DNA of 64,000 bases. Source: Schmidtea polychroa. Lineage: Eukaryota. The stretch is from NCBI GenBank assembly GCA_044892525.1, contig CM097885.1:17610001-17674000 (forward strand), given 5' to 3'. A model generated the notes under the pieces. That model saw only the letters and a program-made list of their open reading frames with translations. It did no database searches and had not been told where the DNA came from. Of this stretch, positions 4,068 to 36,232 are shown piece after piece (the first letter of the stretch is position 1; the number at the start of each line of letters is the position of its first letter). A program made the position numbers and the translations under genes.

Positions 4068-4510
4068 ATGCAAGACATAGATTTAGAAAATCGAGATCCA
4101 AAAAATATTAATTCATATATTTCGGTATGCAAATAATTTTATTCTTTTTGATCATCGTTGATTCATTCTAGACAGAATGGGAGGATAATTTCGCTGAACC
4201 TGGCGGGTTGAAATCATGCGATTGTTTGTGGAAATGTTCATTCAAATGTTTTCAATTCGGGCGGAATTGCTGCTATAGGTTTCTCAGTGGTCTCCTTGGG
4301 TTATGCATTGCACTTTATTGGGGATGTTGTTACGGATGCGTTGCCTTTTATTATATTTGGTGTATAACGCCTTGGCTCAAACTCTATATAATGCATTGTG
4401 CGTTCTGCAAGAAGATAAGTAAAGCTTTAATGGACTGTATCATTGGTCCCATTAGTGAGATTTGTGGAGTATGCGGAGGTTACTTCCGAGTAACAATGGA
4501 TAAATCTTGA
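4068..4510 (+). CDS. Caveolin family protein (host gene; exons 4068-4124 and 4172-4510; 131 aa)
   Basis: Spliced product is MQDIDLENRDPKNINSYIS-TEWEDNFAEPGGLKSCDCLWKCSF. It matches the caveolin RDP and FEDVIAEP-like signatures and has a hydrophobic hairpin. The 47 nt GT..AG intron is phase 0. Confidence 0.9.
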
Positions 4511-5060
4511 AAGCATTTGATTGTCATGAAATTTGTTAAAAAATAAAAATTATTATCTTTTAATAATAATAAATATTTCGCCAAGTGCGTTTGTTTTTAG
4601 AAAGAATCTACACCAACTTCTTTCTGTTACATTTCAATAATAATTTTGAAATGGAAATTTGTAGAACTTTCCTCAATCTAAATAAATAATTTTAATTAAT
4701 ATTTTTTAATTAATTTAAATTATTACTATTAATTATTTAATATCAAATGTTATTTTTAATTATATATTATTATTATAAATCTTTAGGTTTAAATTATTTT
4801 ATCAACAAAATATTCAACAACTCTATCTTTTAATAGTAAATCTTCAGAAATTCAACAAAATGTCCAATACCTTTAAACTTGAATAAAGAATTTAATTATG
4901 AAATTGGATAGCAAGGGTTTACCGTTTATAATATACAAAATGTTACAGATAAAAATAATAAAAAACATTGGAACATGGATTTTTCTTCTTCTGATATAAT
5001 TTTATCTCCTGGAACATACAAATTAAGTAATTTATTTTCAACAATCATAACCCTAGCAAT

Positions 5061-6268
5061 CAGGCGCGTACGCAGGATGAATCCATGGGGGGGGATTCAG
5101 AAAACATATTTTGTATATGTATTTTTATTTTTTCACGTAATAGCTAGCACTATTTACCAAATTTTATTCAAATTATATTTCACTTTATTTCAATATAAAA
5201 ACAATTACCTATAGGTATATTTTTCTCTCAACTTTTTTATAGAAAATTGTAAAGAAAACTAAATAAAAATTTATTAAGAAATATGAATAATAATTATACA
5301 TTATAAGAAAAATTAATATAAAATAAAATTAATATAAAATAGAATAAAAATTGCATATTCAGCAACAGGACTATTTTCTGAAAAAAATAAAAAGCGATAT
5401 AAATTAAGACTGAATTATATTCAAATTTCTAATTTACGTGAACTTTTTGCTAGTTCATCTAGAACTGCATCTGTAGAAATCGCGACATTACGATGAATAT
5501 TAAGTAACGCTAATCCACTTAACCTATCTTCACTCATTGTGTTGCGTAAATACGTTTTAAGTCGTCTCAATGTTGAAAAAGATCGTTCACTGCTTGATGT
5601 TGTAACTGGTAGTGTAGCAAATATTTTAAGTAATTTTCGAACAGTTGGGAAAATTGAATCGTCGCATGCTAAAAATGGATTATGAGCATTTTTTGGTGTA
5701 TTCGAAAAATTTAAAACATGGCGCCACCATAGCTTCAGCTCACTAACCTTTTCCACCTGCTAAACCAGCTGTATTGAAACTTTAAATTACGTTTTCCACT
5801 AACTGGGAATACAAATTTGTCGTCAGGATACCAAACGTTTTTCAACAAAAATAATCTTTTTTCATTGTCGTATTGGTCTTTTCCAATAAAATTACTAATA
5901 TCATTAATAATTACATTTGAATCTGATCCTGATGGAGACTCACATTCACATCCACTTACTGAAGCTGCAGCACTATCATTTTCACTAGGAACAGGAGCAA
6001 CCTGATCAGCTGTTCTTTCTAAATCACTTGTTTTAGATTTTTTAACAAAGTAATTTGTTAAAGTAGAATTTTTTAGTTTTCTTTTCTCGTTATTCATCTT
6101 CACAAAATATTATTTAAACAAATTTTAAAATTAACATTAAACAGAAATTAGACTTTCAAGTTCAAGAGAAAACAAAAAACAAAAAAAAACACGTTTGAAA
6201 ATTTAAAAACTCGACTGTTTGGGTCCCGCAATTATTATTATTAGTAATAGAAAGTACATTATCATTAT

Positions 6269-6328
<60 letters not shown>

Positions 6329-6358
6329 CAGTAAACCCCCCCCCTGCGTACGCGCATG
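5061..6358 (-). mobile_element. Internally deleted hAT DNA transposon
   Basis: TIRs CAGGCGCGTACGCAGG / CCTGCGTACGCGCATG. The 8 bp TSD is CTAGCAAT / CTAGCAAA (one mismatch). Confidence 0.9.
5421..6103 (-). pseudogene. hAT transposase remnant (N-terminus joined directly to the hATC dimerisation domain)
   Basis: The C-terminal part LPVTTSSSERSFSTLRRLKTYLRNTMSEDRLSGLALLNIH is the hATC motif. The N-terminal part RNLKFQYSWF resembles the start of a TTF zinc finger. The catalytic core is absent. Confidence 0.9.
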
Positions 6359-6964
6359 CTAGCAAAAGATTTTTTGAAGGCTAACAAAGTAAGTTTTTTA
6401 GATCAAATAGAACAATATAAATTGTGGTGTAAAATAGTTGCACTTTACTTTCACAATTTTTCTTTTCAATACTCTTTTTACCAACCTTTGATCACATCGG
6501 GCTAACCAAAATATGTTTGGTTATTGGGTTGGTGACAGTATTTGTAAATTTAAATGTTCACTCTGACTCCAAAGCGTGTTTTATTAATTCACAAATTGAC
6601 AATCCCGAACAAGATGAACCTTTATTAATGTTTACAATAAATCGTACAAATTGCAATTCTTAATTAACAGTGACCTTTGTTTTAATTTCTTGTTTGTTTT
6701 CCTTTATTTGATTTATCTTTCTCATTTCACATTTCTTTTTACTTTAGTTTTCTTCGAGTTCCCATAGATCGTCCCGTTTGTCATGACGATCTCCCCCAGG
6801 TAATATACTTATTTATTATACTTTTTGTTATTTAGGTAACCTCAACACAATATAAAAATAAATATACGTGAGATTCAGTTAAATTAATGAAATTTGCAGA
6901 AGATTCAAAAATTCATTTGACATTACATTTTCGTATAGTAAATGGCTAATTCAGATATTATTTC

Positions 6965-7545
6965 AGTAGGGTAATGTGTGGACCCGGGAACAAAGAACTA
7001 ATACGTAACCAATGACGTCACAAAGGGAAATTACGTAATACCCTCGTGGGGGGTTTTTTTTAATTTTAATTTTTTTTAAAAAAATTACATAACAGAGACA
7101 TATTACATAACAAAGACATATTACGTAACAAAGGAAAAATTTTAAACAAAGACATTTGAACAAAGGCACATGACTCATCATACTTTTTTCAATATATTAC
7201 GTTGCGGTATTTTAAAATTTAATTATATTTTAATCATTAAATATATTACGTTGCGGTATTTTAAAATTTAAATTTATTTTAAAAACTTATTTTGACGGTT
7301 AAGTTGACAAAATAAAATTATTGCACATACTTTGCATTATCATATATATAGTCTATCAGACAAGATATTCTGTTCCCCTGTGGGTAATGGTCACAAAGGT
7401 AAAGGTCACAAAGGTACTGCTAAAACTTTAACATATTATTACACAATGTATAAAAAATAGTATTAGTGTCCACACATGGTCATGCAACAAGTTAGTGTTC
7501 CCATCGATAGCTCATCTTAAAGTCTAGTGTAAGATTTATCTAATG

Positions 7546-7603
<58 letters not shown>

Positions 7604-7614
7604 ATTGGTAAAGA

Positions 7615-7666
<52 letters not shown>

Positions 7667-7880
7667 ATTATTTTTTTTATTATTATTTTTATTAATATTA
7701 TTATTATTATATAGTCCGAGTCTATCCGACAAGATATTCTGTCCCCCTATGAATAATGGTCACAAAGGTAAAGGTTACTAATGTACTGCTCGCAAGGGTA
7801 CTGCTAAAAATATTCAAGACAAAACTTTAACAAAGAAATTCTAAATATTATACTTTAAATATACACTCAAACTAAAATTT
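6965..7880 (+). repeat. Left TIR of outer Polinton
   Basis: Reverse-complement match to ~46925-47791, including (ATT)n tracts and the CCGACAAGATATTCTGTCCCCC motif. Confidence 0.88.
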
Positions 7881-8153
7881 ATTAACACATTCACATTCAT
7901 CATCTCCACGTTTCATAACATTTTCAACAACATGATCTATACAATCGCTATATACACGCGTTTCAGTATCCGTAAATTCCTCCATAGGTTCATCAATTTC
8001 TTGAATACTTTCCTCGTCATCTTGAGTGTTTTCTTCATCAGTTTCATCAAATCCCGAATCTTTACTCTCTGCTACCCACTCTATATTTAATGCATTTGTC
8101 ACATGTAATATATCTTCCATTTTCACACCAGATATTTCTGCTAATTTTTCCAA
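7872..8153 (-). CDS. Acidic hypothetical protein of outer Polinton
   Basis: 93 aa D/E-rich ORF next to the TIR. A fragment of its 3' end recurs at ~22125-22195. Confidence 0.4.
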   Translation of the reverse strand: MEKLAEISGVKMEDILHVTNALNIEWVAESKDSGFDETDEENTQDDEESIQEIDEPMEEFTDTETRVYSDCIDHVVENVMKRGDDECECVNKF

Positions 8154-8336
8154 TAAAAAGTTTATTACAAATTCTAAATATTAAATAATTCAATAATTAA
8201 CTAATCATATTAACCTTTTTCTGTAGTTATTATTATTGTTATTTTAAAACTATAGTGTATATTTGTTTATAGAAAATATAGAAAATGGGCGAAAACAAAT
8301 ATAACTAAATGCATTTATTAAATACAACAACATTTA

Positions 8337-8756
8337 TTAAAATGTCTGTGAAAGTCTAGCAGACATAATTTTCCAAATTGGAGAATACACATCATTATTA
8401 TCAACTTTATATCCTAGGATTGCAATTGTTATATACCAATTTTCATTTTCTTTGAAGCTGATTTCATCAAAGGAATCATAAAATCTTGCATATCGGTTGT
8501 TGAAAAAACCATGATGATTACATGATAGATTCGTATTCAAACGTTTGAAAACCTCATCAATAGATTTAATATCTATCATTGAAAGTGTGCCGGATAAGAA
8601 TTGAAATTGGGTAGGAATTAGCTTGATCGGTGACACCAATTTCATATTGATTTCTTCTTTTAAAAAATACATTTTGTAGTTATGGAACATTTGAACAGGT
8701 TGTACAAGTTCTGGAAGAACTTTTGGTTTTTCAGTGGTTGAAAATTTCTTTGTCAT
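8337..8756 (-). CDS. Hypothetical protein of outer Polinton
   Basis: 139 aa ATG-initiated ORF with globular composition and no confidently recognised motif. Confidence 0.55.
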   Translation of the reverse strand: MTKKFSTTEKPKVLPELVQPVQMFHNYKMYFLKEEINMKLVSPIKLIPTQFQFLSGTLSMIDIKSIDEVFKRLNTNLSCNHHGFFNNRYARFYDSFDEISFKENENWYITIAILGYKVDNNDVYSPIWKIMSARLSQTF

Positions 8757-8931
8757 CGTGAATTATGATTAAAATGAAATGGTATAGGGTTTTTATACCT
8801 ATGACTATAGTTTATCATCCAATCAGATTGCTGCATGTCTTTGTTTTAATTGCAATGATATCGCATTGATATTGCATTGATATTGCATTGGCACATGTTT
8901 TATATTATTAAAATTATTATTATTATTATTA

Positions 8932-9528
8932 TTATTGTTCATGTTTAAATTCAAGATCACGAATAATAATTTTATTTTTGAATAATAACAATTTGTCCAT
9001 GTCAATACCATAAGATAATGCCATCATTGAACAACCTAATGGTCGCATCTCAGTTGATTGGGTAGAAAGCTGCTTAATATCCGCAATAGAACGACATATT
9101 ATGTCGCAAGGCATTTCATATCCATGTTTATATCTAAATCGACCTGCTTCCATTTGTGCACGACATACTTGAGATCGATAATCAGGGATCATACCAGTCA
9201 TAACACCTCCAGTACTTTCAGTAATATTAAACAATTTTGTAGCTGAACTTTTCTCAATCATTTTATCTGGAACCTTTCTTTGTGTAGCTACTACATCAGA
9301 ATTATTGCATCGAATACCCACGGAAATCCGTCCACCAAATAAATTTAATATTAGTTGGCCAAAAACACCATTAAAGTTATCAGGATCTCTTGGGATCATA
9401 AAAATGGAACCATCAGTTTCGTTGGTAGTATTTCCAATTTCCATTGAGTTATCAGATTCATAAATTTCTTCATTAAAAGCAGCCATCATTAACAACTCTT
9501 TCCTTAAATCGAAACATAACTCATCCAA
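8932..9528 (-). CDS. Chimeric ORF containing a proteasome subunit alpha-6 (PSMA6-like) fragment, inside the 3' LTR
   Basis: TQRKVPDK, VMTGMIPDYRSQV, YKHGYEMP and IADIKQLSTQSTEMRPLGC match the central part of alpha-6. The N-terminal ~65 aa are unrelated. Confidence 0.85.
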   Translation of the reverse strand: MDELCFDLRKELLMMAAFNEEIYESDNSMEIGNTTNETDGSIFMIPRDPDNFNGVFGQLILNLFGGRISVGIRCNNSDVVATQRKVPDKMIEKSSATKLFNITESTGGVMTGMIPDYRSQVCRAQMEAGRFRYKHGYEMPCDIICRSIADIKQLSTQSTEMRPLGCSMMALSYGIDMDKLLLFKNKIIIRDLEFKHEQ

Positions 9529-9777
9529 TACAATCGATCGATAAAAATCTAAATCTAAAAATTAAATTACAACCAAACTAATTAATAAATATTGCCATAC
9601 TTCTTGCTCGCGTCTGTGTGCGCACACAGCCAAAAACAAAGAAAAGAAAAGCGCACACAGACGCGACACACCAACAACCCAACCCAAAAAATGACATTGC
9701 TCGCGTCTGTGTGCTCACACAAACCTATCACACAATACAACGCGCACACAGACGCGCATTGAGCTCATAATTCACCA
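8936..9777 (-). repeat. 3' LTR (842 bp)
   Basis: Near-identical to 12838-13586 and directly preceded on the minus strand by a polypurine tract. Confidence 0.92.
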
Positions 9778-9792
9778 TCCTCCCCCCCCTTG
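9778..9792 (-). promoter_or_regulatory. Polypurine tract
   Basis: AAG-run-AGGA purine tract directly upstream of the 3' LTR on the minus strand. Confidence 0.85.
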
Positions 9793-9877
9793 ACACCTTA
9801 GTGTCAATCTCAAATCCCCATCAGCTTCTCCTTCTTCTTTTATACTCAAACATAATTTGAAGATACATTCCCGTGTC

Positions 9878-10036
9878 AGTTTATCCCTTTTCCCCTTCAT
9901 TTCTTCCACTTCCCTCGCCATTTTATCCCTTTTCCCCTTCATTTTCTGCATTTCCCTCGCCATTTTATCCCTTCTCCCCTCCATTTTCTGCATTTTCCTC
10001 GCCATTTTATCCCTTTCCCCCTTCATTTCCTGCATT
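9878..10036. repeat. 42 bp tandem repeat (~4 copies)
   Basis: CCTCGCCATTTTATCCCTT..CCCCTTCATTTTCTGCATT units. Confidence 0.75.
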
Positions 10037-10115
10037 ATGGCTCAATCTCCAATAACCCTCACACACCCATCTTTGTATTATATAAGCCGCCGCACCACGC
10101 ACCTTTTTTGAAAGA

Positions 10116-10673
10116 TCAAAAAAAAAAAATTCTCCACCCACCATCGCTATACTCGGCCAAGCAGCTGTCCCTGTTCAGTTTGATTAGGTGTAATCTCTCC
10201 ATTATTCTTTCTCCCTTTTTCGCCAATTCCATATTCCACACTTTTCCCTGTTGCATTTCATTTAGTGACCAGTTTTCACTTAATGTTTTTATAAGCATCC
10301 TACAAAGTCGTTCTTTGATTGCTTCGTGTTTCGATTCCCCAATCGACACCTTGTCTTTCATGTGCATCTTTTGAGGCGTGCAAGCGAGTTCCAGTGACCC
10401 TTGTTGTTTTAAACTGTTCGATGATTCGTTCAATTTTTCCAAAACTTCTTTGGCCCCTTGATCATTATCACGTACAGTTTCCCATGATTTCCCATATACC
10501 ATACTGGTCTCCTTGTTTTGCCTCTCCCCTTTGGAGTCTTCTGCCCCTTTTACATTATCACGTTCTTCTTTTAGTCGATTAACTTCCCCTTCGTCGACCT
10601 GAATATCATTAACCGCCGCCTCGGGCGTTAAATCCTCTGATGTTGATTTGTCTTTTTCCCAATTACTCATCAC
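10116..10673 (-). CDS. Hypothetical charged protein in the LTR element
   Basis: 185 aa ORF downstream of gag with the same K/E-rich composition. No protease or RT motifs. Confidence 0.4.
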   Translation of the reverse strand: MMSNWEKDKSTSEDLTPEAAVNDIQVDEGEVNRLKEERDNVKGAEDSKGERQNKETSMVYGKSWETVRDNDQGAKEVLEKLNESSNSLKQQGSLELACTPQKMHMKDKVSIGESKHEAIKERLCRMLIKTLSENWSLNEMQQGKVWNMELAKKGERIMERLHLIKLNRDSCLAEYSDGGWRIFFF

Positions 10674-10804
10674 TTACGTTGTCTTCGGTTCCACAATTTT
10701 ATCGTCGGATAATTTTATGATCTCACCAGCCCGGCAAGCCTCATCTTGCTTTTCCCCTGTATTCATTTTTCCTTGAACATTTTGTGTGATTGTCATAACG
10801 TTAA

Positions 10805-12622
10805 CTAATTCGTTAGTTCTTCCAGAATTGAATATTTGCCATCTAAATGACTCTGAGCTCCTTGCTCTTCATTAGATGCCTTACTCCTGTGGAGTGGCGT
10901 GTCCTCAATTCCTCGAGATGCCCGTAACTCGTCATTGAACATTTCAGTTACCGCAAAATAACTCTGAACCGTCCTCATTGATGCGTTTTCATTTAATAAT
11001 TCGTTGTGTCTTTGCTTACATCCGGTAACCTTGCAGAAAGATTCTTTACGGCATTCCTTGGCCATGTGATTTCTTTTGAAGCAATTCCTGCACAGTTTCA
11101 TTTCTTCGATGACTCTCTTCCTTTCTGAAATTGTGAGTTGCTTAAACTTGTCACATTGGTCTAGGTAATGTTGACCACCACATTCTACACACTCTGATCT
11201 ATAGCCGTTAGAGTTATTCACCTGTATAACCGTTCCACTTTTAACTCTGCCATTTGGTTGCCCCGTAAAATGCGTCCGACCTCCTGGATTGAAGCTTTCT
11301 CTTTCTCTAGACACACCTTCTACTCTTGGCCCATCATAAGTCCTGGTGCTTGATTGAGTCCCATACACGACCTCGTTAGTGGACCTTAGGATCTCCGCTT
11401 CTTGTTGTATCCATCTTCTCAAATCCTCTATCGTCTCCCGCAATTCCTTTTCTATTTTCTCTTTCTTCCATTTATACACAAGATCCGTTGTTAACTTGCT
11501 CAAACACTTTTGAAAAAGATATCCAGTCTTTAACTCGGTTTCTTTCCCAGTGGATTTAAATCGCACGGTGACTGTTTCTAATAATCCAACAAATAAGTCT
11601 AGATCCTTCAAATCTCCTTCTCGAATTGGCCTGAACTTGTCCATCTCCTCTAACATTGATAAATATATCCTTTCATCCCCACCATATATCCTATCCAACT
11701 TCTCTTTTGCCATTTGATAAGCCTCTGCCGAATATTCTAGATTTTCAATTAACTTTAATGGCTCTCCGTGAAGGTACTTGTGCAGGTGAAACATCTTTTC
11801 AACCTCATCACCTTCCGCTTCGTCAACACACGCCGTAAAAGCTGCTTTGCATGGTTCGTACTCTTTCATCTTGCCTTCAAAAACAGGGATTGTAATTTTC
11901 TGTAGACTTTCCAGTTTTCTTTTATGCACGGAATTATTCTTCTTGAAGGTATCATCATTCACATTTTCCTTCTCTTCCATAACAGATTGATTTGCTTTTC
12001 TTTCCATCAATGCCCCAATCATTTGATGTTTTTCCTCGATCTCTTGCAGGTCTTTATCTAAGATTGCAGTGATGTCCAATCTTTGCAATTTTTTACTGAT
12101 CGTTCTCAGATCCCCTAATTCTTCATCTAGACTCTCCTTTTGATCTTCATATTCCGCCAACCATTCGCTAACATCCTTCCCATTTATATCATTGAGAATC
12201 TTGTTTCTCAATCTCGTTAATTTTCCTTTTTTCATTCTCTTTTTCCACAGTCCTTCTTCTAAAATCTCTTCGTCATTGCCCCCGCACAGCCTGAGTGACA
12301 AATGAAGTGTCGAACCTACTTGTATCCTATAATCGTTCAATCTTCTTCTATTTTCTAATTGCTTTCCTGCGTGTACTAACATTTGATAATTTACCGGAAT
12401 TCCTTCTTTGTCCTGGATTTTTCCTTTTACCTTTTCAATTGTGTCGTTCCATTCAACATCAAGAGTAATTGTCTTACCAGTAAGAGTTTTGACAAATATT
12501 TGACTTTCCCATCGCAACTCAAAACCCATTACTCCGCTCGCCCTCACCCTTGACTCATCTCTGTTCTTTACCCTGATCCCCTGGCTTCCCCCTTTAAAAA
12601 AGTGCTGGGGCCATAGCAGCAC
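10805..12622 (-). CDS. Ubiquitin-Gag fusion (BEL/Pao gag)
   Basis: Ubiquitin domain [17 protein letters not shown]...[12 protein letters not shown] is followed by a DUF1759-like region (IPVFEG...LHKYLHGEP) and three Cys/His knuckles ([37 protein letters not shown]). The true start is probably an internal ATG. Confidence 0.9.
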
Positions 12623-12803
12623 TTTCCCACGCTCGGTAGGGAAGGGAGGATGATTAATTTTACAAAAATAAAGTTCAAATAAATGAAAATAAAATTTACA
12701 TCACCCTTGATGATTAATTTTACAAAAATAAAATTCGAATAAATGAAAATAAAATTTACATCACCCTTGATCAGCCGGGCTGTCTCCACTGAAACATTGG
12801 TGC

Positions 12804-13430
12804 CTAGCCCCCTGAAGGGAACCATGCTCTGCTACCATGTTCATGTTTAAATTCAAGATCACGAATAATAATTTTATTTTTGAATAATAACAATTTGTCC
12901 ATGTCAATACCATAAGATAATGCCATCATTGAACAACCTAATGGTCGCATCTCAGTTGATTGGGTAGAAAGCTGCTTAATATCCGCAATAGAACGACATA
13001 TTATGTCGCAAGGCATTTCATATCCATGTTTATATCTAAATCGACCTGCTTCCATTTGTGCACGACATACTTGAGATCGATAATCAGGGATCATACCAGT
13101 CATAACACCTCCAGTACTTTCAGTAATATTAAACAATCTTGTAGCTGAACTCTTCTCAATCATTTTATCTGGAACCTTTCTTTGTGTAGCTACTACATCA
13201 GAATTATTGCATCGAATACCCACGGAAATCCGTCCACCAAATAAATTTAATATTAGTTGGCCAAAAACACCATTAAAGTTATCAGGATCTCTTGGGATCA
13301 TAAAAATGGAACCATCAGTTTCGTTGGTAGTATTTCCAATTTCCATTGAGTTATCAGATTCATAAATTTCTTCATTAAAAGCAGCCATCATTAACAACTC
13401 TTTCCTTAAATCGAAACATAACTCATCCAA
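12804..13430 (-). CDS. Second copy of the PSMA6-fragment chimeric ORF (5' LTR, reading through the PBS)
   Basis: Same protein as 8932-9528 except one K/R change and the C-terminus. Confidence 0.85.
   Translation of the reverse strand: MDELCFDLRKELLMMAAFNEEIYESDNSMEIGNTTNETDGSIFMIPRDPDNFNGVFGQLILNLFGGRISVGIRCNNSDVVATQRKVPDKMIEKSSATRLFNITESTGGVMTGMIPDYRSQVCRAQMEAGRFRYKHGYEMPCDIICRSIADIKQLSTQSTEMRPLGCSMMALSYGIDMDKLLLFKNKIIIRDLEFKHEHGSRAWFPSGG
12820..12837 (-). promoter_or_regulatory. Primer binding site complementary to initiator tRNA-Met
   Basis: TGGTAGCAGAGCATGGTT directly follows the 5' LTR on the minus strand. Confidence 0.85.
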
Positions 13431-13586
13431 TACAATCGATCGATAAAAATCTAAATCTAAAAATTAAATTACAACCAAACTAATTAATAAATATTGCCAT
13501 ACTTCTTGCTCGCGTCTGTGTGCGCACACAAACCCATCACACAATACAACGCGCACACAAACGCGCATTGAGCTCATAATTCACCA
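12838..13586 (-). repeat. 5' LTR (749 bp)
   Basis: Matches 8936-9777 apart from a few substitutions and a 93 bp repeat-unit indel. Confidence 0.92.
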
Positions 13587-13733
<147 letters not shown>

Positions 13734-13802
13734 TAAATAATCAAAAAAACGTGGCAATGATTTAATAATACAGAAACGCCAACTCAATAAATTCAACATA
13801 AA

Positions 13803-13841
13803 CGCGATATATTTCAATTGTACAACAATCTTCGTCAGGCA
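13803..13841 (-). ncRNA. Minimal type I hammerhead ribozyme (Penelope-associated)
   Basis: Minus strand reads TGC CTGACGA A GATTGT TGT ACAATT GAAA TATAT C GCG: core boxes, stem II hairpin and palindromic stem III. Confidence 0.65.
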
Positions 13842-14137
13842 GCAATCTGGATAATCAATAATAAGACATAAAATATGCAATATCTAAACAAATTAACTAA
13901 TAATAATCATCTCCAAACTGTATCAAAAATTTTAAAAAAATACAAAAAAAAATATTTAAAAAAAAAACCAAACCATATTTTACATGGCCCCACATACATA
14001 TTATTTTAAAAATGAAATTTTAATTTAATAACATTCAACATTCAACATAAAATTAACAAATTTAAAAAAAATTACATAGTTTACAAAACACAAACATAAT
14101 TATACCACAAACACGACTCCCAACCTTCAACCTTCAA

Positions 14138-14470
14138 TTACTTAAACACATTCAAAATCTCCGTGGAACGGGCAACTTGATCATTTATTTTTGGATTTAA
14201 ATATCTAATCAACAATGCCTCACAAGTTACTCGTTCCCAATAATTACTTAAACCTTTTGAAATAATTTTAAAATCAGAGATACCTATTTTTTTACTGACA
14301 CATTTCCTAACATGATTACTAATATTAGTCAATCCTTTTGGTCGACAGTGTTCAAGAACTCGGGTGCAGAGATGACGGGCAGTCTCTCCAATGTATGTGG
14401 CATTACACCCATTACATGAAAATTGATACACGAGCTCAGAACACAAACCAATTGGCGTTGGACATTTACT
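14138..14470 (-). pseudogene. GIY-YIG endonuclease domain of Penelope-like element
   Basis: LVYQFSCNGCNATYIGETARHLCTRVLEH...EALLI...PKIN. Confidence 0.9.
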
Positions 14471-15503: not shown

Positions 15504-15968
15504 TTAATTAAGTGATAATAAAAAATCTAAAAATTCTTTTCCTTCAATTATTGATTTAATTTCAGATATGATATTATCAACTATACATTTGTAATCAATA
15601 TTTTTTATTCCAAGAATTACTATCTTACCGCTAGCTAATATATTTACACACATAGGGTTATATTTTATATATCTCAAAGCTGGAAATAATTCTGGTTCGT
15701 AAAAGCATGGTATTAATTTAGCCAATTTATTTAAATTACAAGAAAAACCTATATCGGAAGTTACGGTTATCGATTGTATTTCTAAATCATAAACATTATA
15801 TTCACTAGCTTTGATTATTTCCTTACACCCCATAATTCTATATTTACCAGTTTTGAAATATATTATTGGATATTTTTTACTTCTATTGATAAGTTGTTGC
15901 GGTTTCCCCATTGGAAATACCATTTTTGATACATCAGCTTTTGCCCTGTAATTTATATTTGAAAGCAT
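15504..15968 (-). CDS. TATA-binding protein-like protein
   Basis: YEPELFPALRY and NILASGKIVILG match the second TBP repeat. IYFKTGKYRIMG looks like a degenerate first repeat. Confidence 0.82.
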   Translation of the reverse strand: MLSNINYRAKADVSKMVFPMGKPQQLINRSKKYPIIYFKTGKYRIMGCKEIIKASEYNVYDLEIQSITVTSDIGFSCNLNKLAKLIPCFYEPELFPALRYIKYNPMCVNILASGKIVILGIKNIDYKCIVDNIISEIKSIIEGKEFLDFLLSLN

Positions 15969-16076
15969 TTTAATGAAATAATTATAAAAACTCTGTTATA
16001 TATATATAGTTATTTTAAAACGGAGTTCATTTAAATTATCAATATAAACAATAATTATATAGTTTAAATTTAAAAA

Positions 16077-16715
16077 ATGGAATTACGAAATGATGCAGTA
16101 TACCAAATCGTTGGTCCAAGTGGTAGCGGAAAAACATTATTTGTTTGTAAAGTACTAAAATCAAATTTGTTCAAAACAAAATTCAACAATATTTATTGGC
16201 ATAGGGGCGCCGATGAAGAACACGAATTGGCGCAATCAAGTCTCTGTCAGTTGAAAAACATGAAAATAGTAAAGGGTTATGATAAAAACTGGTCAAGTCG
16301 TTTGAAAAAAGATGATGTCATCATTATCGGTGATTTGTATCAAGAAGCCAATAAAGAAACGGATTTTAATAATTTATTCACAAAAATCAGCATACATGTT
16401 GGAGTAACAGTTATTTTCATAACACAAAATCTATTTCATCAAGGTGGTGCACATCGAACACGTAATTCAAATGTACAATATTTAGTTATTTTCAAGAATC
16501 CTAGAGATGCAACTGTCATTGATTTTCTTGGACGACAAACATACCCTAATAACCGTAATTTTCTTATCAATGCATTTCAAGATGCTACGAAAATACCTCA
16601 TGGGTATATATTTTTCGATTTCACACAACAATGTCCTGATGATATACGGGTAAAAACAGATATTTTCAACCCAAAAGGTGCCATGGTTTATAAACAAAGT
16701 TCAAAACAAATTTGA
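16077..16715 (+). CDS. FtsK/A32-like genome packaging ATPase (outer Polinton)
   Basis: Walker A GPSGSGKT, a degenerate Walker B (IIIGD), ITQNLF and VIFKNPRD. Confidence 0.92.
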   Translation: MELRNDAVYQIVGPSGSGKTLFVCKVLKSNLFKTKFNNIYWHRGADEEHELAQSSLCQLKNMKIVKGYDKNWSSRLKKDDVIIIGDLYQEANKETDFNNLFTKISIHVGVTVIFITQNLFHQGGAHRTRNSNVQYLVIFKNPRDATVIDFLGRQTYPNNRNFLINAFQDATKIPHGYIFFDFTQQCPDDIRVKTDIFNPKGAMVYKQSSKQI

Positions 16716-16728
16716 AAACATATAAATA

Positions 16729-17223
16729 ATGTTTTCAAAAACAAGGATATCGAGTAAAAAACAACCAAAGGTTCCACCAACAACTAGTTATACTCCATCG
16801 AAAGAACTTATTACAGAAAATTTTGCTGCAATGAATCTTATTTCGAAAAATCCTAAACCTAAACCTAAAAGTAAAACCACTAAGAAAGTAAAAGTTGTTA
16901 AAAATCATCGGAGTTTCCCGTTTTTCAATACATTGTTAAAGGCAACAAGTATGAAAAGAAACAGTATTTTGCAATCATTTCAAAATTATGTTGTCGATGA
17001 TTTACTCGATATTATACTTAAAGTAGTCAAAGGCAAGATTAAAATCAGTAAATCTAAAAAGCAATTATTGAGTAAACATAGGAAACCTTTGCTATCATTA
17101 GTAAATAATAAAAATCGTCAACAAATGAGAAAAATTATATATAAACAACAAAGGGGATTTATCGGTGCATTGATACCTTTAGCAATAGCATTATTAGGTG
17201 GAATAATAGGAAGTCAATCATAA
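16729..17223 (+). CDS. Basic Polinton virion/core protein
   Basis: K-rich, ending in QQRGFIGALIPLAIALLGG (QxGGF-like site plus amphipathic tail), and located between ATPase and integrase. Confidence 0.65.
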   Translation: MFSKTRISSKKQPKVPPTTSYTPSKELITENFAAMNLISKNPKPKPKSKTTKKVKVVKNHRSFPFFNTLLKATSMKRNSILQSFQNYVVDDLLDIILKVVKGKIKISKSKKQLLSKHRKPLLSLVNNKNRQQMRKIIYKQQRGFIGALIPLAIALLGGIIGSQS

Positions 17224-17284
17224 ACAATGGGTGTTAATCCTTCATTACCAGACATTAAATTTAATATTAAATCTTCTTACTGTA

Positions 17285-18423
<1,139 letters not shown>

Positions 18424-19192
18424 ATTTATATCCTTTTTTTCCAAGTAATAGTTGCCCGCTTATTCATCCGGATAATCAAGCCAGTAAATTCATGGTCAAT
18501 CTCCAGAATCCGATTTCTTTAAATGGTGACTGAGAAGTTGCACTGCAAGATTTTACATTCGTGTACAATACATTCCCATTTTATAGTCAATGTAAGATTG
18601 ATTTCAAAAGGAATGCTATGAAAACATGTAGTGGTATCTTTATTATCAGTAATTATGATAAAACATATCATATTCCGAATCAAATATTAGATCCGCATTG
18701 CTCTATGTTTTACAAGGATGGATTAAATATCAGTTGTGATTTTAAACCATTTACAATAACATTCGAAACTATTGAAGATGCCAAACGATTGGGTTGCAAT
18801 AAGTTGAAAAATGAAGTTATGGAAACAGAATACTTATTACGCTTTGATCTATTTGAAGCAAAGTGTAATGAAAGAAGAAATCAAAATATCAGTGTCGTAT
18901 AATAATGAAGTTGAAGAATCATTCACCTTTGCTGACGAATTATATATTGATAAACTTGATGTGTTACTTAAATATTTAAAGTACAATTGTTCACACATAT
19001 TTAAAAGTTTGGACATTGTGAAAGATTTAAATGTAACTTAAAGTTTGAATGATGACATTTGTGAGGTTACATTTGATAAAAATTTGACAAATACACTTGG
19101 ATTAGAGAAGCAGCAATATCGGGAAAAATCGGCTGGTATACGTAAACCAAGAATACTTGAACATCATCAACAAATGTTCATATATACTAATA

Positions 19193-20228
19193 CAGTAGAT
19201 TTCGCTTATAGAGAACTTGCTTAAAGAGAACAAAATCGGTTAAAGAGAATTTTTTGGTTTAAAAACGGCATTTACCCCAATTTTTCAGTGTAAATGTTCT
19301 CTTTAACCGATGATCGGTTAAAGAGAACAATTTTTTATTTTGGGTTTATTTTTTTCGAAATACAGTTTATTTTAGACAGTAAACATATAATTTAATTATT
19401 TTTGTTTTAAAAAGGTAATTGATTAAATGGTAACCTGATTAAAGGTTATTTGATTAATTGAAAATATTATTTTACTTAAAAATTTTAGGCCATAATGAAA
19501 TCAAGTTCTAGGACAATTCTAACACTCAAACAGAAATTTGAAATCATAGCACTTTTTGAGAAAGGAGAAAGCCAAGCATCATTGGCCAGAAAATATAAAA
19601 TATCACCTTCATCAATATCAAACATTTGTCACAAGAAAAGGGAAAAAATACTTGAGGCCTACAGTTCCAGGCCTTCGTCAACCAAGAAACTGAAACAATC
19701 TTTTCATGATGATTTAGATATTCAGTTAAGGCATTGGTATTTGCTGCAACGATCCAAAAAGATTCCCATTAACAGTGTATTACTTATTGAAAAAGCTGAT
19801 CAAATTGCCAAATACCTAAAGATTCAAGATTTTACTTGCACAATGAGTTGGATCCAACGTTTTAAAACTCGGCATTCTCTTGTTTTCGGATCTATTTCTG
19901 GAGAAGCTGGTGATGTAAATAATGAGTTGGTGGCGTCGTGGCTTAAAAATGAGTGGCCGGAAATTAGGAAAGGTTATGGTAACAAAGATATTTTTAACTG
20001 GCCATTTACAAGAAAGTTTAATAGCAATTGAATCAGATTTGGAGAAGATTTTACTCAAGAAAAAAACCAGGCAACGGAAAATAACTGAGTTTATTTTCAA
20101 AAAATAAATGTGTTATGTAGTTAGTAAAATTTTTTGAATATTTTTAAAATTATCCTTATTAAAAAGTATCGGTTATAGAGAACATTTTTTCAAGTCCAAA
20201 AAATGTTCTCTTTAAGCGGTATCTACTG
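19193..20228 (+). mobile_element. Internally deleted Tigger/pogo (Tc1-mariner superfamily) element
   Basis: TA TSD. TIRs are CAGTAGATTTCGCTTATAGAGAAC / GTTCTCTTTAAGCGGTATCTACTG. Confidence 0.92.
19495..20107 (+). pseudogene. Tigger transposase remnant (CENP-B-type HTH domains; DDE domain deleted)
   Basis: LTLKQKFEII, WIQRFKTRH, GEAG and DIFN followed by a break. The C-terminal RQRKITEFIFK is retained. Confidence 0.88.
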
Positions 20229-28341: not shown

Positions 28342-28917
28342 AAGAAGATTATAAAGAAGCTTATGAAAGGAAGATTTATGAAAAGAAGATTTTTGAAATG
28401 AAGATTCATTAAATATGATGATTTTGAAATGAACATTATAATAATATAATTAATACTTTTGTATATTATTTGGAATCATAATTTATTTTAATTATTTATG
28501 AAAATAAAATATATTTTAGAAAATGAATTATTTATTTATGAAACCGAATTAAATTATCTATTTTTTATAAGATACTATTTAAAGGAATAATCTTATAAAT
28601 ATGTATTTATTTTTTCGTGAAAAAATGATGATTAGGAAAAGAACATTATGAAAAGAACATTACAATAACTTTTGTATATTATTTGGAATCATAATTTATT
28701 TTAATTATTTATGAAAATAAAATTTAGTTTAGAAAATGAATTAAATTATTTGTGAAAACGAATTAAATTATATATTTTATAATATTTTTTATAAGATACT
28801 ATTTAAAAGACAATTTTGAATAATATCTTATGAAAAAATATCTTAAACTTTGAAAATGATTATTAAAATTATCTTAATATTTTTTAAACATTTTATGATA
28901 AAAATATTTTCATTGGT

Positions 28918-31215
28918 TTGAAATATCAAAACTTTTGTAATAGTCAATATCATAATGACTGCGATGATATAATGGAAAGATATTATAGTCATAAATATAA
29001 CGGTGTCACCTACATCCTATGCCCTAAATGTGAGGTTATTGAAGTTATAACGTATAAGGAATTTTTTAATAAGCATAGACTCCATCTCCAACAATTTAAA
29101 CCTTCTAAGAAATCTCTTTTCTATAGCTTATATAAATCGTTTGTTAACAATAATAATATCAACAACAATAATAATACTAACAACACCAATAATAATAATG
29201 ATATAAACGAAATAAATAATCTAAAAGATCAAGTAAATAAATTAAATGATCAAATGAATAATCTAATTAATATGAATAAAAGAAAAAATAATGAAAAAAT
29301 AAATTTAATACCAATTAAAAATCTAAAGTTATTGATGTAATCACAATAAGTGATGATGATGTAATAATCAACATAAGTGATGATGAAATTGTTAATAATA
29401 ATAGTAGTAGTAATATTTATTATAATAATGGTATTAATAATAATTATAATAATATTAATCAAATAGGTTATGGTGTCGTAGATGTCACCAGTGATTTAAA
29501 TAATAATCATATTATATTAAAAATGGACGTTTCGTCTTTAGATTTAAAAACGGTCTCTGTACCAGACATTTTAATAAATAAATTAAATTTATATGTAAAT
29601 AAATTAAAATCATGTAAAATTCAATTTTGTCTAAAGGTGGAATTTATAAAAGATGATGAGTTACAATCTTTTGTAATCTCGAATTCCGCCCGAGTTTGGA
29701 GATATACATTCATTGACGAAGGTATTGCTCGTTTAAATGAAAAAATAATTAAAATTAATGAGAAAGGTAGTAATTGGACTATCAATAAAATCGAATACAT
29801 AAGCTTTGTTCTGACTAAATTTGCTGAAATAAGTCGTTTAAGTGGTAGAAGCTTTATTGAAACCCCAAAATCTTTAAGAAACTTAAGCTGTCTCATTAAT
29901 GCAGTTAATAATGACCAATTCTGCTTTTTGTATAGTTTCTTGTCAATTATTAAATATGACAGTATAAATAGGCAATATAGAAATCGCCCTAATTCCTACA
30001 ATCTTTCTGATATTAAATTTGATTCTAATGATATGCCGATGAAACTATCAAATATAAGTAAATTTGAACAACAAAATCCAGGTTATAGTATTAATGTTCT
30101 TACTTACAACGAAAAGGCTTTGATAGACATTTCCGATGAAGATGCAGTTATGAAACATCCCTTTATTGATATAATATACAGGAGTAAGATAGTAGGAGCC
30201 ATACCTATCAATTTATTATTAATTGAAAAGAATGATAATTATCATTATCTTGGAATCACAGACCTAAATAGATTCCTTAATTGTAGGAATAGTTCAATCA
30301 CTCCTGTTAGGATTTGTAGTCAGTGGTGCCCTAGGTGTTTAAACGGGTTTAGGAATGATGACGCTTTTAATAGACATAAGGGTCTTTGTGATAAAAATCA
30401 GCTTGGTACTACCTTGTACACATTGCCTAAAAATAAATATTTAGAATTTACTGACTGGAGTAAAACAGTTACTCCTCCGTTTGTTATTTACGCCGAATTT
30501 GAGGCTATCTTACCTAAAGACACTCTCTATTTTCAACGTCATCTACCTATTTCTGCCGGTATACTTTTTATTAATAATTTTACGGGAGTAAAAATTTATA
30601 AGTCGTTTACCGGTTTAGATTGTGTCGATCAATTTCTTACTGAAATTGAAATGATAGGGAAATATATTGTAACTCCTTATTATTATAAAAATTATCAAAA
30701 GAAAATGATAATTACAGATGAACAACAATTAATGTTTGAAAACAGTACATCCTGTTATTTGTGCAATAAGCCTTTAGTTAGTCCAGTTAGGGACCATGAT
30801 CATTTTACCGGTCTATATCTTAGTGCCGCTTGTACAACTTGTAATCTGTCGAGGCAAATTAGACATATCCTTCCTGTAGTATTTCATAATTTAAAGGGTT
30901 ATGATCTGCATCATATCTTGAAATTTGGCCTTTCAAAATACCATTCATGGAATATTAGTTGTATTCCTTTAACCAGCGATAAATTCCTTAGTCTTTTTGC
31001 TAGGATTGACTCATTAACTGTTAAATTTATAGACTCATCAATTTGTCAGCGAGTCTTTGAATAATGCTGTCAAAACTTCATCATCTTTACCCTTGACCGA
31101 ATCAGAATTTCAGGGTACAATAATAACTGCAAAGGGAATTTTTCCTTATGATGCCGCAACTTCATTAGAGGTTTTGCATAACACTCATCAGTTACCTCCT
31201 ATTTGGAAAGATGTG
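28918..31215 (+). pseudogene. Protein-primed DNA polymerase B, 5' part (outer Polinton; frameshifted)
   Basis: VRDHDHFTG, FHNLKGYD, KFIDS and KGIFPYD motifs. The 29523 ORF is open upstream to at least 29331 and probably joins the 28918 ORF via a frameshift. Confidence 0.9.
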
Positions 31216-31523
31216 AGTAGTGTGTATCTATCCCTAACGACCACAAGCCTCCCAGCTGTTTTCATGTTTTATACCTATTTTTTTCCCGTTTTATACCTAT
31301 TTTTCCCCCATAAACGTAAAAAAAAAACACTTAAAACCTTAAAAACCTATATCTTTTAATTTCTTTATTCCGAAGACATTTTGCTTTCAAAATAAAAACT
31401 TAAAAAACAACAAAAATATTAAAAAAACAACACAAAATGTTAATAAAACAGGGAAAAAAATACTGATAAAACTATGAAAAACGTTTGTCGGCTTGCGGTC
31501 GTTAGGGATAGATACACACTACT
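31216..31523. repeat. Left TIR of inner Polinton (itself bounded by inverted repeats)
   Basis: Starts AGTAGTGTGTATCTATCCCTAACGACC and ends GGTCGTTAGGGATAGATACACACTACT. Confidence 0.92.
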
Positions 31524-31680
31524 TGCAGGTCGCCAGTTTATCAAGTCGCCAGTTTATCAAGTCGCCAGTTTATCAAGTCGATAGTTTGTCAAGTCAATGA
31601 TGCAATCGCTGCGGTCTTGGCAAGTCGACAGCTTGGTAAGTCGACAGCTTGGCAGGTCGATAGCTTGGCAAGCTGCTAGA
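31524..31680 (+). repeat. 16 bp tandem repeats next to the left TIR
   Basis: (AAGTCGCCAGTTTATC)n followed by (AAGTCGACAGCTTGGC)-like units. Confidence 0.85.
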
Positions 31681-31833
31681 ATATAAATATAAAAAAAATA
31701 AAAAAAAAATAAAAATAAAAATAAAAAAATAAAAAAAATAAAAATAAAAAAAAATAAAAATAAAAATAAAAATAAATATATAAAAATTTAAAATTTAAAA
31801 ACAACGTATCCAGTAAAAAAATTTTTTCTAAAA

Positions 31834-34800
31834 ATGAATTGTAATATTTGCAATAAAGTTTTTAAAAATAAAACAGGATTAATTTCTCACTATAAATCGA
31901 AAGCTCACTTACTAAAAGAAAATAATCTTAATGACACAAATTCAAAAGTTTGTACTAAATGTAAAGGAAGATTTCTACATTCTGGATATAATAAACATTT
32001 TGAAAATTGTATCGGGAAAAATAGAGAAATATTTACATGTCCTCATTGTAACTTTTCAACAAAACTAAATTTCTATTATTTAAGACATTTAAAAGAATGT
32101 AAAAATAAAAAACAAAATTCTGACGTTGAAGAATGTCATTCAGAAGGAGAACCTGATCATGTTGAAAGAGAAAAATACAACTGGGATGATTTTAATCATA
32201 TAGATGAATTTCAATTAAAAATTAATGGACCTGCAACCCCTGGAGAATATATAAGGAGAAATAAAAAAAATATTAAAAATTCTTTCACTGAAGCTTTAAA
32301 AAATTATAAACCAACAAGGTATAATGTTATAAAATATAAAATTACAATCAAAGCAAAATATTGGAGAGGACCAGAAGAAAAGACAACTCCTTTAGATGTT
32401 GAAATTGGAATACCTTTTAAATATTTATTTTCAACTAGAGGATTTAATAAAAGCATCAAAGAAATAATTCAAGCAGTAGAAGCAAAACAAGAAGAGGTTG
32501 AAAATGAATTAGGAGATTCAAACTTAGTATTCAACTCTTTCCAAACTTTAGTGATTGATTATTGGAGAGGATTACCACCTAATCCTAAATCTTATATTCA
32601 AACACCCTTTAGATCTAGGGTTGTTATAAATGTACAGAATAAGGATAACAAATGTTTCATGTGGTCAATACTTGCATATTTACATCCTCAAGCTGAAAAC
32701 CCTCAAAGAGTTTCAAAATACAAACAATATGAAAATGAATTAATATTTCCCAAGGGATTCACACACCCAATGAAACTAGAAGACATTCCAGAATTTGAAA
32801 AACTAAATAATCTTAAACTTAATATTTATGAACATGTTAAAGGATGGGGACATGGAAGGAAAGATATTATTCCAATTTATATTTCTGATAGTGATAGCAC
32901 GAGGGAGATATATCTTTTAATCTTGGAAGAAGGAAATAATCAACATTATGTTTTAATAAAAGACTTTCAAGCTTTTACATCACCAGAGAATCCAACTAGT
33001 GGAGGAGGAACATGTAAAAGATGTCTTCATTATTCAACAACTAAAAACTCTATGATTAAACATGCAAGATTTTGTGAAAAAGATGATCCAGCTTTAATTA
33101 GAATGCCTACAGATCCCAGGATGTATTTTAAAAACTTTACAAATTTATTACAAACATTAGGAGTTGTCTATGGAGACTTTGAATCTATAAATCGTAAACA
33201 AGATATAATTATGCAATATTTAAAAATAATAGAAAAATATAAACTCATGGATGAATGGAAAGCCTCTAAACAGAAGATGAAACCAGAGAGGATGAAAGCC
33301 TTTCTAAGAAAAAGAAATAAACCTAATAGTGTTAAAAAAACTAAACAATTACCATCTGCTTATAAATTATTATTTAAAAGTAATTATAGAATCTAGAGAA
33401 TATGCATTTCAAGGAACTTCAGAAGATGTTTTAAATCATTTTACTAAAAGTATAAATGATCTAGAACATGAAATATTTAAAATATTAAAAACAAAGTATC
33501 CTCAAAAAATTTCTAATCAACAACAACAAGAATATGAAAATACTTCCAACTGTTGGATGTGTAAACAAGACATTCTTCCTGATGATAAAGTTATAGATCA
33601 CGATCATTTAAAAAAGGAAAATAATTATCGAGGAGCAGCCCATAGAAATTGTAATCTTAATTGTCATACTCCTAAATTTGTACCAGTTATATTTCATAAT
33701 CTTTTTGGTTATGACATACATCTATTTATTAAACATTTAGCAGAAAATGCTAAAAACTCTTTCAAAGTTATAGGACTTACAAAGGAAAAATATAAATCAG
33801 TTGAATATGGAAAATTAAAATTTATAGACTCGTTAAACTTTCTCAAATGTCTCTAGATGGAATAGCTAAAACAATGAAAGCAGAAAATTTTAAAATCACT
33901 CGAGAATTCTTGGAAAAAAATAATATCCCCCAGAAGAATATCCTACATGCTTAGCAAAAGGAATATATCCCTATGACTATGTTGATTCATTTGAAAAATA
34001 TAATGAAACAAAATTACCAGAGAAAGAAGATTTCTATTCCCAACTTCAAAAATCTCATATTACAAATCAAGAATATTCTCGAGCAAATAAAATGTGGGAT
34101 CTTTTCAACTGTAAAACTTTAGGAGAATATACAAGTATGTACTTATCCCTAGATGTTTATATTCTAGCAGATTGCTTTGAAGAATTTACAAAGTCTTTTG
34201 TTCTTAAACCTTATAATTATATAACAGCTCCTTCTTTAGCTTGGGATACTATGTTATATACCATTTGGACTTCAGATCTTCCAGAATCTGATAAAATTAT
34301 AGATCTTTTAACCGACCAAGATATGTTTAATCAAATTAAAACAAACATTAGAGGAGGAGTATCTTCAGTAATGGGGAATAGAGAAATAAAAGCTAGAAAT
34401 GCAATAACTACTAGCCGAAGAATCTCTAAACACCCTGATCCATATATAAAACTTAACAATGAGGAACTAAAAGAAGTATTAGAAGGAATGAAAAATCCTC
34501 TATTTATACTTTATATAGATGCAACAGCTTTATATTCAGGAATTATGACTCAATATTTACCAATGAGTGACTTTCAAGAAATATACTCCTCTGAAGGACT
34601 TCCAGAAATAGAATGCCCTCCAGAAGAATATTTAAAGACTCTTATGAATGAAATACTTTCAACTCCTAAAGATTCTCCAATAGGATACTTTGTAGAATGT
34701 GACCTCGACTACCCAGATGATATAAAATCAGGAACAAGACATTTCCCTTTAGCTCCTATAAGAAGAAAGATTGATATCAACGAACTTTCACTCTGGCAAA

Positions 34801-36158
34801 TCTCACAAGATAAACCTCCAACAATGAAACTTCTTTGTGATCAAACAGATCGAACTTATTATCTTTGTCACTATAGACTCCTCCAGTTTTATCTTTCACA
34901 AGGAATGATATTAAAAAAAGTTCATAGTGTCATAAGATTTAAACAAGCAGCATTCATGAAGACTTTCATCGAGGAGAACATTCGTTGTCGAAACATTGCA
35001 AAAAGAGAAGGTAACCTTTTAAAAGACAATAATTATAAACTTTTAAACAATTCAGTCTTTGGGAAGACAATGGAGAATGTTGATAAATATACTCATATTG
35101 AACTCCTAACAAATACCCCGAAAGATATAGCCCGTTATAATCGTATGCTAGGAAAGCCTACATTTAAAAATGCAGAAGTATTTTCTGAAAATCTTACTGC
35201 AGTAGAACTACAGAATTTTGAGAAAACATATAATAAACCAATATTTATCGGCTTTGCAATTTTAGAACTTTCAAAATTACAAATGTATGAAACATATTAT
35301 AACATCTTACAACCTATATATGGATCGAATATAGCAATGCATGCAATGGATACAGATTCAATGTTTTTAACAATAAGAACTCACGATTTACAAAGTGATA
35401 TCTCTGAAAATCCTATACTTTCAAATTTAATAAATTCATCTGGAGAATTATTTTCGTTTAAAGATGAAAAACCTTTTACTCCTATAGAAAATGGAATATT
35501 TATTCGTGCTAAACAATATTCATATGAAACATTTACAAATCCTAAATTTGAAGAACATTCATTTATATTTAAAACCCCAGAAACAGAAGAAAGCATTACA
35601 CATAGATATCCTATATTCCCTAAAGGACCTGACGGACAGGGAGAAAAACCTGTAAAGGATAACAGATGTAAAGGAATTCAGAGATGTGTAGCAAAGAATC
35701 TTTCTCATCAAGATTATATAGATACATTGAATCCAAATCATAAAGATAAAATTGATGAAATACATCAACTTAAAAGTGAAAAGCATGATATTTACTTGAT
35801 AGAATCCCAAAAAGTATCATTATCAAATTATGATGACAAAAGATTCATACTAAGTGATTTAAAGACAACTCTTCCTATAGGAAATAATTTAATACCGATA
35901 ATAAAAAATCTTGATAGATTGAATCAGTTATATGGTACAAAGATTACTGATCTTGATATTTATAATGTTGAAATCATTTATCCTGAGAGAATTGAGAAAC
36001 CTTTATATTCTCAAGTTTTTAATCCTATATGTTTAGAACTTAAATATTTTAATACTGATCCTGAATATATAAAAGGTCTAAGTGATAAAGAATTTAAAGA
36101 TCATAAAGAGGTTCTAAAAACTAATTTCGAAAAGTTAACATCAGATTCTATCAAATGA
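31834..36158 (+). pseudogene. Protein-primed DNA polymerase B with N-terminal C2H2 zinc fingers (inner Polinton; frameshifts near 33390, 33850, 33940)
   Basis: VYGDFE, IDHDH, FHNLFGYD, YIDATALY, KLLNNSVFGKTMEN, MDTDS and DDKR motifs spread over three ORFs. Confidence 0.93.
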
Positions 36159-36232
36159 TTTTTTTCTTTTAAAAATGTCAACAATTAATTTAAGAGTGAC
36201 AACATCAACCTTTTGAAGGGCAATAAATTTTT

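Follow-up and report, generated by a model that had tools for sequence, protein, structure and literature searches.

The window, by which we mean the whole 64,000-nucleotide stretch of Schmidtea polychroa DNA analyzed here, carries on its minus strand a BEL/Pao-type element of 4.65 kb, which is sited in a (TAA)n run and flanked on both sides by ATAAT. From its 5' end, the element comprises the following parts, including two long terminal repeats (LTRs) and a primer-binding site (PBS):

12838..13586, minus strand: 5' LTR, 749 nt, TG...CA
13389..13391, minus strand: first ATG in the LTR's open frame of 184 codons, with the PBS in the same frame
12878..13242, minus strand: captured piece of proteasome alpha-6 (PSMA6) mRNA in the 5' LTR
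12873..12878, minus strand: AATAAA, likely the poly(A) signal, 41 nt before the LTR end and read as Asn-Lys in the open frame
12820..12837, minus strand: PBS for initiator tRNA-Met, in-frame reading HGSRAWF
12506..12819, minus strand: AT-rich leader containing a 60-nt duplication; most relatives have it open and in frame
12278..12505, minus strand: diverged ubiquitin with Ser in place of Met1 and LRLCGG as its end (GG at 12278-12283)
10805..12277, minus strand: BEL/Pao Gag with a basic N-terminal segment, DUF1759 (11459-11881) and CCHC knuckles; the frame ends at 10805
9792..10804, minus strand: tail without pol, 93.6% identical to a non-autonomous subfamily with a 1153-aa frame; several broken frames here
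9778..9791, minus strand: polypurine tract
8936..9777, minus strand: 3' LTR, 842 nt, holding the same PSMA6 piece as the 5' LTR

The minus-strand frame at 10805-12700 encodes 631 residues, with ubiquitin at residues 67-141 (PF00240, E 1.3e-21) and DUF1759 at residues 274-414. Gag follows LRLCGG directly with Asn as its first residue, and two CCHC matches in Gag were found in the twin copy L069. The diverged ubiquitin ending in LRLCGG, already recognized by an earlier sequence-only reading, agrees with canonical ubiquitin at 55 of 76 positions. Its proposed location at the very N-terminus of Gag holds only in part: the retained GG does directly precede Gag, but the ubiquitin is internal, since in most copies of the family the frame opens within the LTR. 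The PBS had also been assigned correctly; of its 18 nt, 17 can pair with the 3' end, terminal CCA included, of a genomic tRNA-Met(CAT), which we take to be the initiator tRNA because of its A1:U72 and three G:C anticodon-stem pairs. The tRNA-Met(CAT) pattern has 1228 matches genome-wide, including genes in tandem with a 454-bp period at G000:C1:79.326-79.387 Mb (L211-L214). In the leader, positions 12603-12618 (plus strand) match the D-arm/anticodon region of the genomic initiator tRNA-Met at 14 of 16 nt, so that the element RNA is complementary to the tRNA at a second site, some 200 nt beyond the PBS; an extended primer pairing there is possible.

The window copy has decayed. Its leader is broken by a stop at 12804-12806, just after the PBS, and by a net frame change, with an in-frame ATG remaining at 12527-12529, and the copy is also broken near the end of Gag. 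Pol is absent, and the alignment to an autonomous copy covers Gag and the 3' end only. The two LTRs are 97.9% alike. The window copy is thus a broken, pol-less, non-autonomous member of a young BEL/Pao family. Window positions 4151-14150 are 100% identical over 10 kb, flanks included, to G000:C1:17670193-17680192 (L069), reflecting either a recent segmental duplication or an assembly duplication.

A DNA search for the ubiquitin region returned 456 candidates in the genome. In most of the fetched copies of the window's family (family 1), the frame opens inside the 5' LTR, reads the PBS as HGSRAWF, and continues through ubiquitin into Gag. Nine of the 38 long PBS-bearing copies have an integrase motif in the frame shared with LTR, PBS, and ubiquitin, and the autonomous copies run in a single frame of up to 2189 residues, from the LTR through ubiquitin, DUF1759, reverse transcriptase (RT), and Peptidase_A17 to integrase (Pfam order in the 2189-aa frame: ubiquitin, DUF1759, RT, Peptidase_A17, integrase zinc finger, DUF5641). 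The description of the element as lacking pol therefore applies to the window copy but not to its family. Autonomous relatives that carry both ubiquitin and pol in one frame exist, being 96% identical to the window copy over Gag; ubiquitin-less Gag homologues were seen among outside sequences. The window copy itself belongs near the large non-autonomous subfamily with the 1153-aa frame. LTR pairs are mostly 99-100% alike across the family copies, indicating that the family is young, and a strict script detected a 5-bp target duplication in 28 of 50 elements. ATAAT or ATTAT duplications in (TAA)n runs recur at many insertions, as in the window, which is possibly a microsatellite preference.

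The element has a TG...CA LTR pair, a PBS, a polypurine tract, a short target duplication, and a DUF1759 Gag with CCHC knuckles; the Pol order RT, Peptidase_A17 region, integrase, DUF5641 is present in the autonomous relatives and absent from the window copy. Judged by Gag, Pol order, and ends, the element is a member of BEL/Pao. It shares the DUF1759 Gag with CCHC knuckles, the one-frame Pol, the TG...CA LTRs, PBS, polypurine tract, and 5-bp duplication with the BEL/Pao LTR retrotransposons of animals. Unlike in the usual BEL/Pao elements, the frame starts within the LTR and crosses the PBS, and ubiquitin-GG replaces the start Met of close homologues, e.g., from Mya arenaria.

LTRs and PBSs are usually taken as non-coding, and the protease that cleaves a retrotransposon polyprotein is usually taken to be the element's own. 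A 20-nt LTR/PBS junction has 351 exact matches in the genome, a control pattern none. We drew an unbiased sample of 40 junctions that had not been fetched before, by order along contig C1. The PBS frame is the longest open upstream frame at 37 of these 40 junctions (median 138 codons versus 17 and 1). Ubiquitin lies downstream of 34 of the 40 and is present in all 29 that carry Gag. The conservation of GG among copies, on which the sequence-only reading depended, was confirmed: GG is intact at 26 of 29 readable junctions and lost at 3 of 23 family-1 junctions of the sample, a count that excludes the family-2 junctions L122 and L129, read through frameshifts; L059 is without a PBS. Since the copies are related and sets A and B were chosen by similarity to ubiquitin-Gag, the counts reported here are not independent.

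Leader lengths range from 172 to 496 nt. Among the lengths occurring twice or more, 15 of 16 are multiples of three, compared with 31 of all 48 distinct lengths. Leader hydropathy rises to 1.6 in 40 of the 91 copies, which would allow for a membrane role. Only 12 of 22 family-1 leaders in the unbiased set are in frame, one out-of-frame length is common to three copies, and the leader of the window copy and its twin is broken; copies with out-of-frame leaders thus exist and may perhaps spread in trans. At 26 of 40 junctions, an AATAAA precedes the end of the LTR by 25-50 nt, against 0-3 of 40 in each of four control windows. Together with the kept frame, this placement suggests a long R region that would be translated at the 5' end. 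Inverted repeats in the 5' part of the LTR (CTCGCGTCTGTGTG...CACACAGACGCG; window 9582-9757 and 13506-13566), present in many copies, are a candidate promoter or hairpin element.

As for the content of the LTRs, the PSMA6 piece in the window consists of two host exons joined, with the 43-nt GT-AG intron absent, and is 91-93% identical to the host gene near G000:C1:117.275 Mb. In a DNA search for host PSMA6, the matches were swamped by LTR copies; for one captured proteasome piece, the closest named relatives come from trematodes and cestodes, with about 60% identity. Three of these captured pieces (cargos) are of spliced host origin, lacking five (cargo E), three (cargo D), and one (window PSMA6) GT-AG introns of the corresponding host loci. 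The content of the LTR varies among copies, with 102 distinct open stretches falling into 65 clusters. In 44 stretches scanned, proteasome, EAP30, Ras/Rab, DSPc, CCT, ClpP, SelR, adaptin, cofilin, and HSP70 pieces scored above the Pfam cut-off and RING pieces below it, and the cargos are often mosaics; cargos D and E gave no Pfam match above the cut-off. Some cargos are present in dozens of LTRs. In family 2, a second ubiquitin-Gag family introduced below, a DEAD-box helicase piece lies in frame within the leader, after the PBS (L108:1499-1960), so capture extends beyond the LTR.

The PSMA6 cargo of the window shows a dN/dS of 0.9 against the host gene, and the PSMA6 median over 34 cargos is 0.77, in keeping with a nearly neutral drift of the window's proteasome cargo in which the frame is kept. 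For cargos D and E, the ratios of 0.41-0.54, on 11-18 changes each, leave room for a cargo function. One could accordingly imagine the released cargo, with or without ubiquitin, as a useful product that would act on host proteostasis and trafficking as a decoy or dominant-negative, or else as camouflage against small-RNA silencing. The list of cargos, including proteasome alpha-6, EAP30, Rab, CCT, HSP70, ClpP, adaptin, and RING pieces, the spread of certain cargos to dozens of LTRs, and the ratios near 0.5 for D and E would fit such a role. We nevertheless consider it highly improbable, as the cargos are truncated mosaics of 65 clusters among 102 distinct sequences and the PSMA6 pieces are near neutral. 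The cargo genes are abundant housekeeping mRNAs, as expected under random co-packaging. Such a role would also still require a cut between cargo and Gag and adds to the explanation preferred below more than it replaces it.

In contrast to the cargos, the ubiquitin appears constrained, and unevenly so. Among seven aligned domains, L71/L73/G75/G76 are identical in 28 of 28 cells and core residues in 93 of 109, whereas R72/R74 are identical in 6 of 14 and the binding patch of L8, R42, I44, H68, and V70 in only 18 of 34 (P0209 was excluded from these pooled counts, and its tail was read separately). The window ubiquitin carries R42M, I44V, V70S, and R74C; that of family 2 carries I44N, R72G, and R74A. 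Comparison of 46 intact family-1 copies gave dN/dS values of 0.38 (ubiquitin) and 0.25 (Gag), from pairs that are not independent; between families, synonymous sites are saturated and dN is 0.17-0.38. By these substitution patterns, both the ubiquitin and its LxGG tail are under purifying selection.

The sequence-only reading had offered recruitment of ESCRT as one role, and one may extend it to a ubiquitin that stays on Gag as a binding module for ESCRT or other ubiquitin receptors during particle assembly or release. The late domains of retroviral Gag can be replaced by fused ubiquitin, the fold is conserved here, with its core largely identical, and EAP30/SNF8, of the ESCRT-II family, is one of the common cargos. 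The I44/V70 patch and R42/R72/R74, which conjugation or receptor binding would need intact, are altered, with Asn at I44 in family 2, whereas no change occurs in the cleavage tail. A ubiquitin with an intact GG is liable to be removed, and no env was seen in the autonomous frames scanned. Recruitment of ESCRT is disfavoured by the unconserved surface, and the binding module as a whole seems very unlikely to us.

The sequence-only reading had also pointed to Asn as an N-degron residue exposed by the cut. Asn follows GG in almost all family-1 copies, but in family 1 only; Ser, Gly, or Met takes its place in the other lineages, which leaves this detail without support. A broader version would have the cut mainly set the N-terminal residue of Gag, as N-degron tuning, or aid folding and expression, with translation starting at an ATG just upstream and the LTR frame being incidental. 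Family 1 indeed has an in-frame ATG 8 codons ahead of Q2, just before the ubiquitin, as well as a Met 15 residues after GG, so that other starts are possible, and the ubiquitin-Gag frame of the window is open despite the broken leader. The varied residues after GG speak against this version, which moreover leaves the open frame across LTR, PBS, and leader unexplained; we regard it as unlikely.

Family 2 has the PBS and some cargo in common with family 1, and its Gag is about 30% identical. It carries one ubiquitin or two, the last of which ends LGLAGG-Ser, and the first 42 residues after GG contain no Met. Of 38 copies, 36 keep the GG next to Gag, and the upstream GG between the two ubiquitins is intact in 23 of 34; nine of the 11 upstream departures are the same G-to-V change, which may represent one or two events. 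One host polyubiquitin gene shares 90% identity with the di-ubiquitin, and the single-ubiquitin form is at most 79% identical to any of five host loci. This difference points to a re-capture of ubiquitin at the same position from host polyubiquitin.

Outside these families, we considered the best 150 Gag homologues of 1.84 billion representatives. Five of the 150 have ubiquitin-GG at the same site, a sixth begins with a ubiquitin-like tail, and one of the ubiquitin-bearing homologues also has a PBS-like FGSRA upstream. In six ubiquitin-less homologues that were read, including two from Mya arenaria, the start Met lies just ahead of the same basic segment or near it. When the ubiquitin was included in the query, only polyubiquitin-like proteins were found among the 120 matches listed. 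In a Gag tree built with a quick method (116 of 152 rows; P0236 and P0209 were too short), the six ubiquitin-bearing rows fall into two long-branch groups. At L204:8316-9998 (G000:C1:19.588-19.590 Mb), a long open leader is likewise followed by a ubiquitin-like domain ending FFGG, with a DUF7041-like Gag immediately behind it; this match to the Gypsy-type DUF7041 Gag (E 4.7e-5) is below the Pfam cut-off.

Capture of host mRNA is frequent in the family, and polyubiquitin mRNA is abundant, so the ubiquitin might be a neutral passenger acquired like any other cargo. Its single position in 29 of 29 Gag-bearing elements of the unbiased sample, the purifying selection on it, and the GG kept in distant lineages and before a second superfamily-type Gag largely refute this idea, which we hold to be scarcely tenable.

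We instead propose that a frame opening in the LTR and running over spliced host cargo and the PBS reaches ubiquitin-GG-Gag, where host deubiquitinases would probably cut and free Gag; the architecture, the spliced origin of three cargos, and the kept frame are direct observations. The role of ubiquitin as a processing signal, as first proposed from the sequence, is upheld as a prediction by a GG kept across copies and distant Gag lineages at the site where ubiquitin-less homologues have their start Met. The ubiquitin, whose fold is assumed from the 55/76 identity, has G75-G76 intact and in frame with the downstream protein, and the cut would, by position, yield the usual Gag N-terminus. The likely reason for a cut is the frame opening in the LTR, which puts variable host cargo ahead of ubiquitin. 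The invariant L73/G75/G76 next to variable I44, V70, R72, R74, and post-GG residue favours a deubiquitinase cut site over an Asn N-degron or ESCRT recruitment.

In the proposed mechanism, transcription would start near the 5' end of the LTR and end near its 3' end, thereby placing the cargo in a long R. Reverse transcriptase would switch onto co-packaged host mRNAs while copying R, so that the captured piece ends up in both LTRs. Since the same RNA is the template for Gag(-Pol), captures that are in frame and free of stops would have an advantage, and the cut after GG by host hydrolases would render Gag indifferent to the preceding sequence, leaving the cargo free to drift and be swapped. The main doubts about the cut arise from the altered R72, R74, and I44, the alternative ATGs of family 1, and the out-of-frame copies. 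Among the contigs from four sequencing runs presumed to be RNA, no displayed piece spanned LTR, PBS, and ubiquitin together, a result that carries no weight on transcription. The R74C change here and R72G/R74A/I44N in family 2 could slow host enzymes. According to the accessible part of PMC7567588, a viral enzyme tolerates a broad P3, and human UCH-L3 rejected its unnatural-residue substrates.

Going further, we lean slightly towards a wider view in which the LTR is a translated, swappable trap for host mRNA, made harmless by a deubiquitinase-cut ubiquitin that frees Gag. The arrangement would have arisen also in a Gypsy-type element, the ubiquitin would be refreshed from host polyubiquitin mRNA, and each of the hundreds of copies (as counted by the exact junctions) would express a shuffled host mosaic, amounting to an exon-shuffling engine.

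Host ubiquitin-ribosomal fusions, eL40 and eS31, which appeared among the PDB matches, likewise place ubiquitin-GG on a basic RNA-binding protein. These fusions are cut by host enzymes. Their ubiquitin is canonical, begins the protein, and is reused, whereas here it is internal and has lost the residues for conjugation and binding. Cytopathogenic pestiviruses (BVDV Osloss, CP Rit) also hold host ubiquitin within a polyprotein, single or double and repeatedly and independently acquired, as far as the accessible parts of the reports describe (PMC8310069; PMC13517609). There, a cut by host hydrolases generates an authentic N-terminus, even with ubiquitin that is N-terminally truncated and fused behind other sequence (PMC8310069; PMC13517609 for the N-terminus); here, the cut is predicted. 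The pestivirus cases, as reported in those parts, are sporadic insertions in an RNA virus that free NS3, while here the ubiquitin is fixed, diverged, and, judging by substitution rates, under selection in genomic retrotransposons, before Gag and behind swappable cargo.

The giant Burro/GYPSM1 Gypsy elements of planarians likewise encode additional domains in an LTR polyprotein, among them a Ubi2/SUMO-like motif (PMC6431247). Their superfamily is a different one, Gag is N-terminal with the motif far behind it in the polyprotein, and the available part of that report describes neither a GG cut site nor LTR cargo (PMC6431247). In LTR-mediated retroposition, as far as covered in the accessible part of Tan et al. 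(2016; PMC5131818, where maize Bs1 is cited), template switching captures partial, spliced, multi-gene host mRNA mosaics. Joined host exons without introns are found here as well, but that capture sits between the LTRs and replaces internal ORFs, whereas here the cargo is inside both LTRs, in frame, with gag(-pol) intact. Cargo inside the LTR that is predicted to be translated distinguishes the element from both the pestivirus insertions and the retrocopies. In our literature search, neither BEL/Pao elements with a ubiquitin-Gag fusion nor in-frame cargo within LTRs turned up; such a family may be recorded in Repbase, Dfam, or subscription journals, which lay outside the search.

If our interpretation is correct, a host protease site uncouples Gag from its own N-terminus, and the LTR gathers in-frame host exons while mobility is kept. 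The elements would then provide a natural, large-scale record of co-packaged, copied mRNAs, would generate chimeric host peptides, and would offer a case, open to testing, in which ubiquitin has been reduced to a cut site. What looks like a paralogue fragment of a housekeeping gene in this genome can instead be cargo of an LTR.

Elsewhere in the window, positions 28888-46609 carry Polinton/Maverick-type genes, namely DNA polymerase B, an A32-like ATPase, a double jelly-roll protein, and an integrase with a phospholipase A2-like domain, and short frames at positions 15504-20031 match TBP, integrase, and CENP-B/Tc5 and, weakly, an ATPase.
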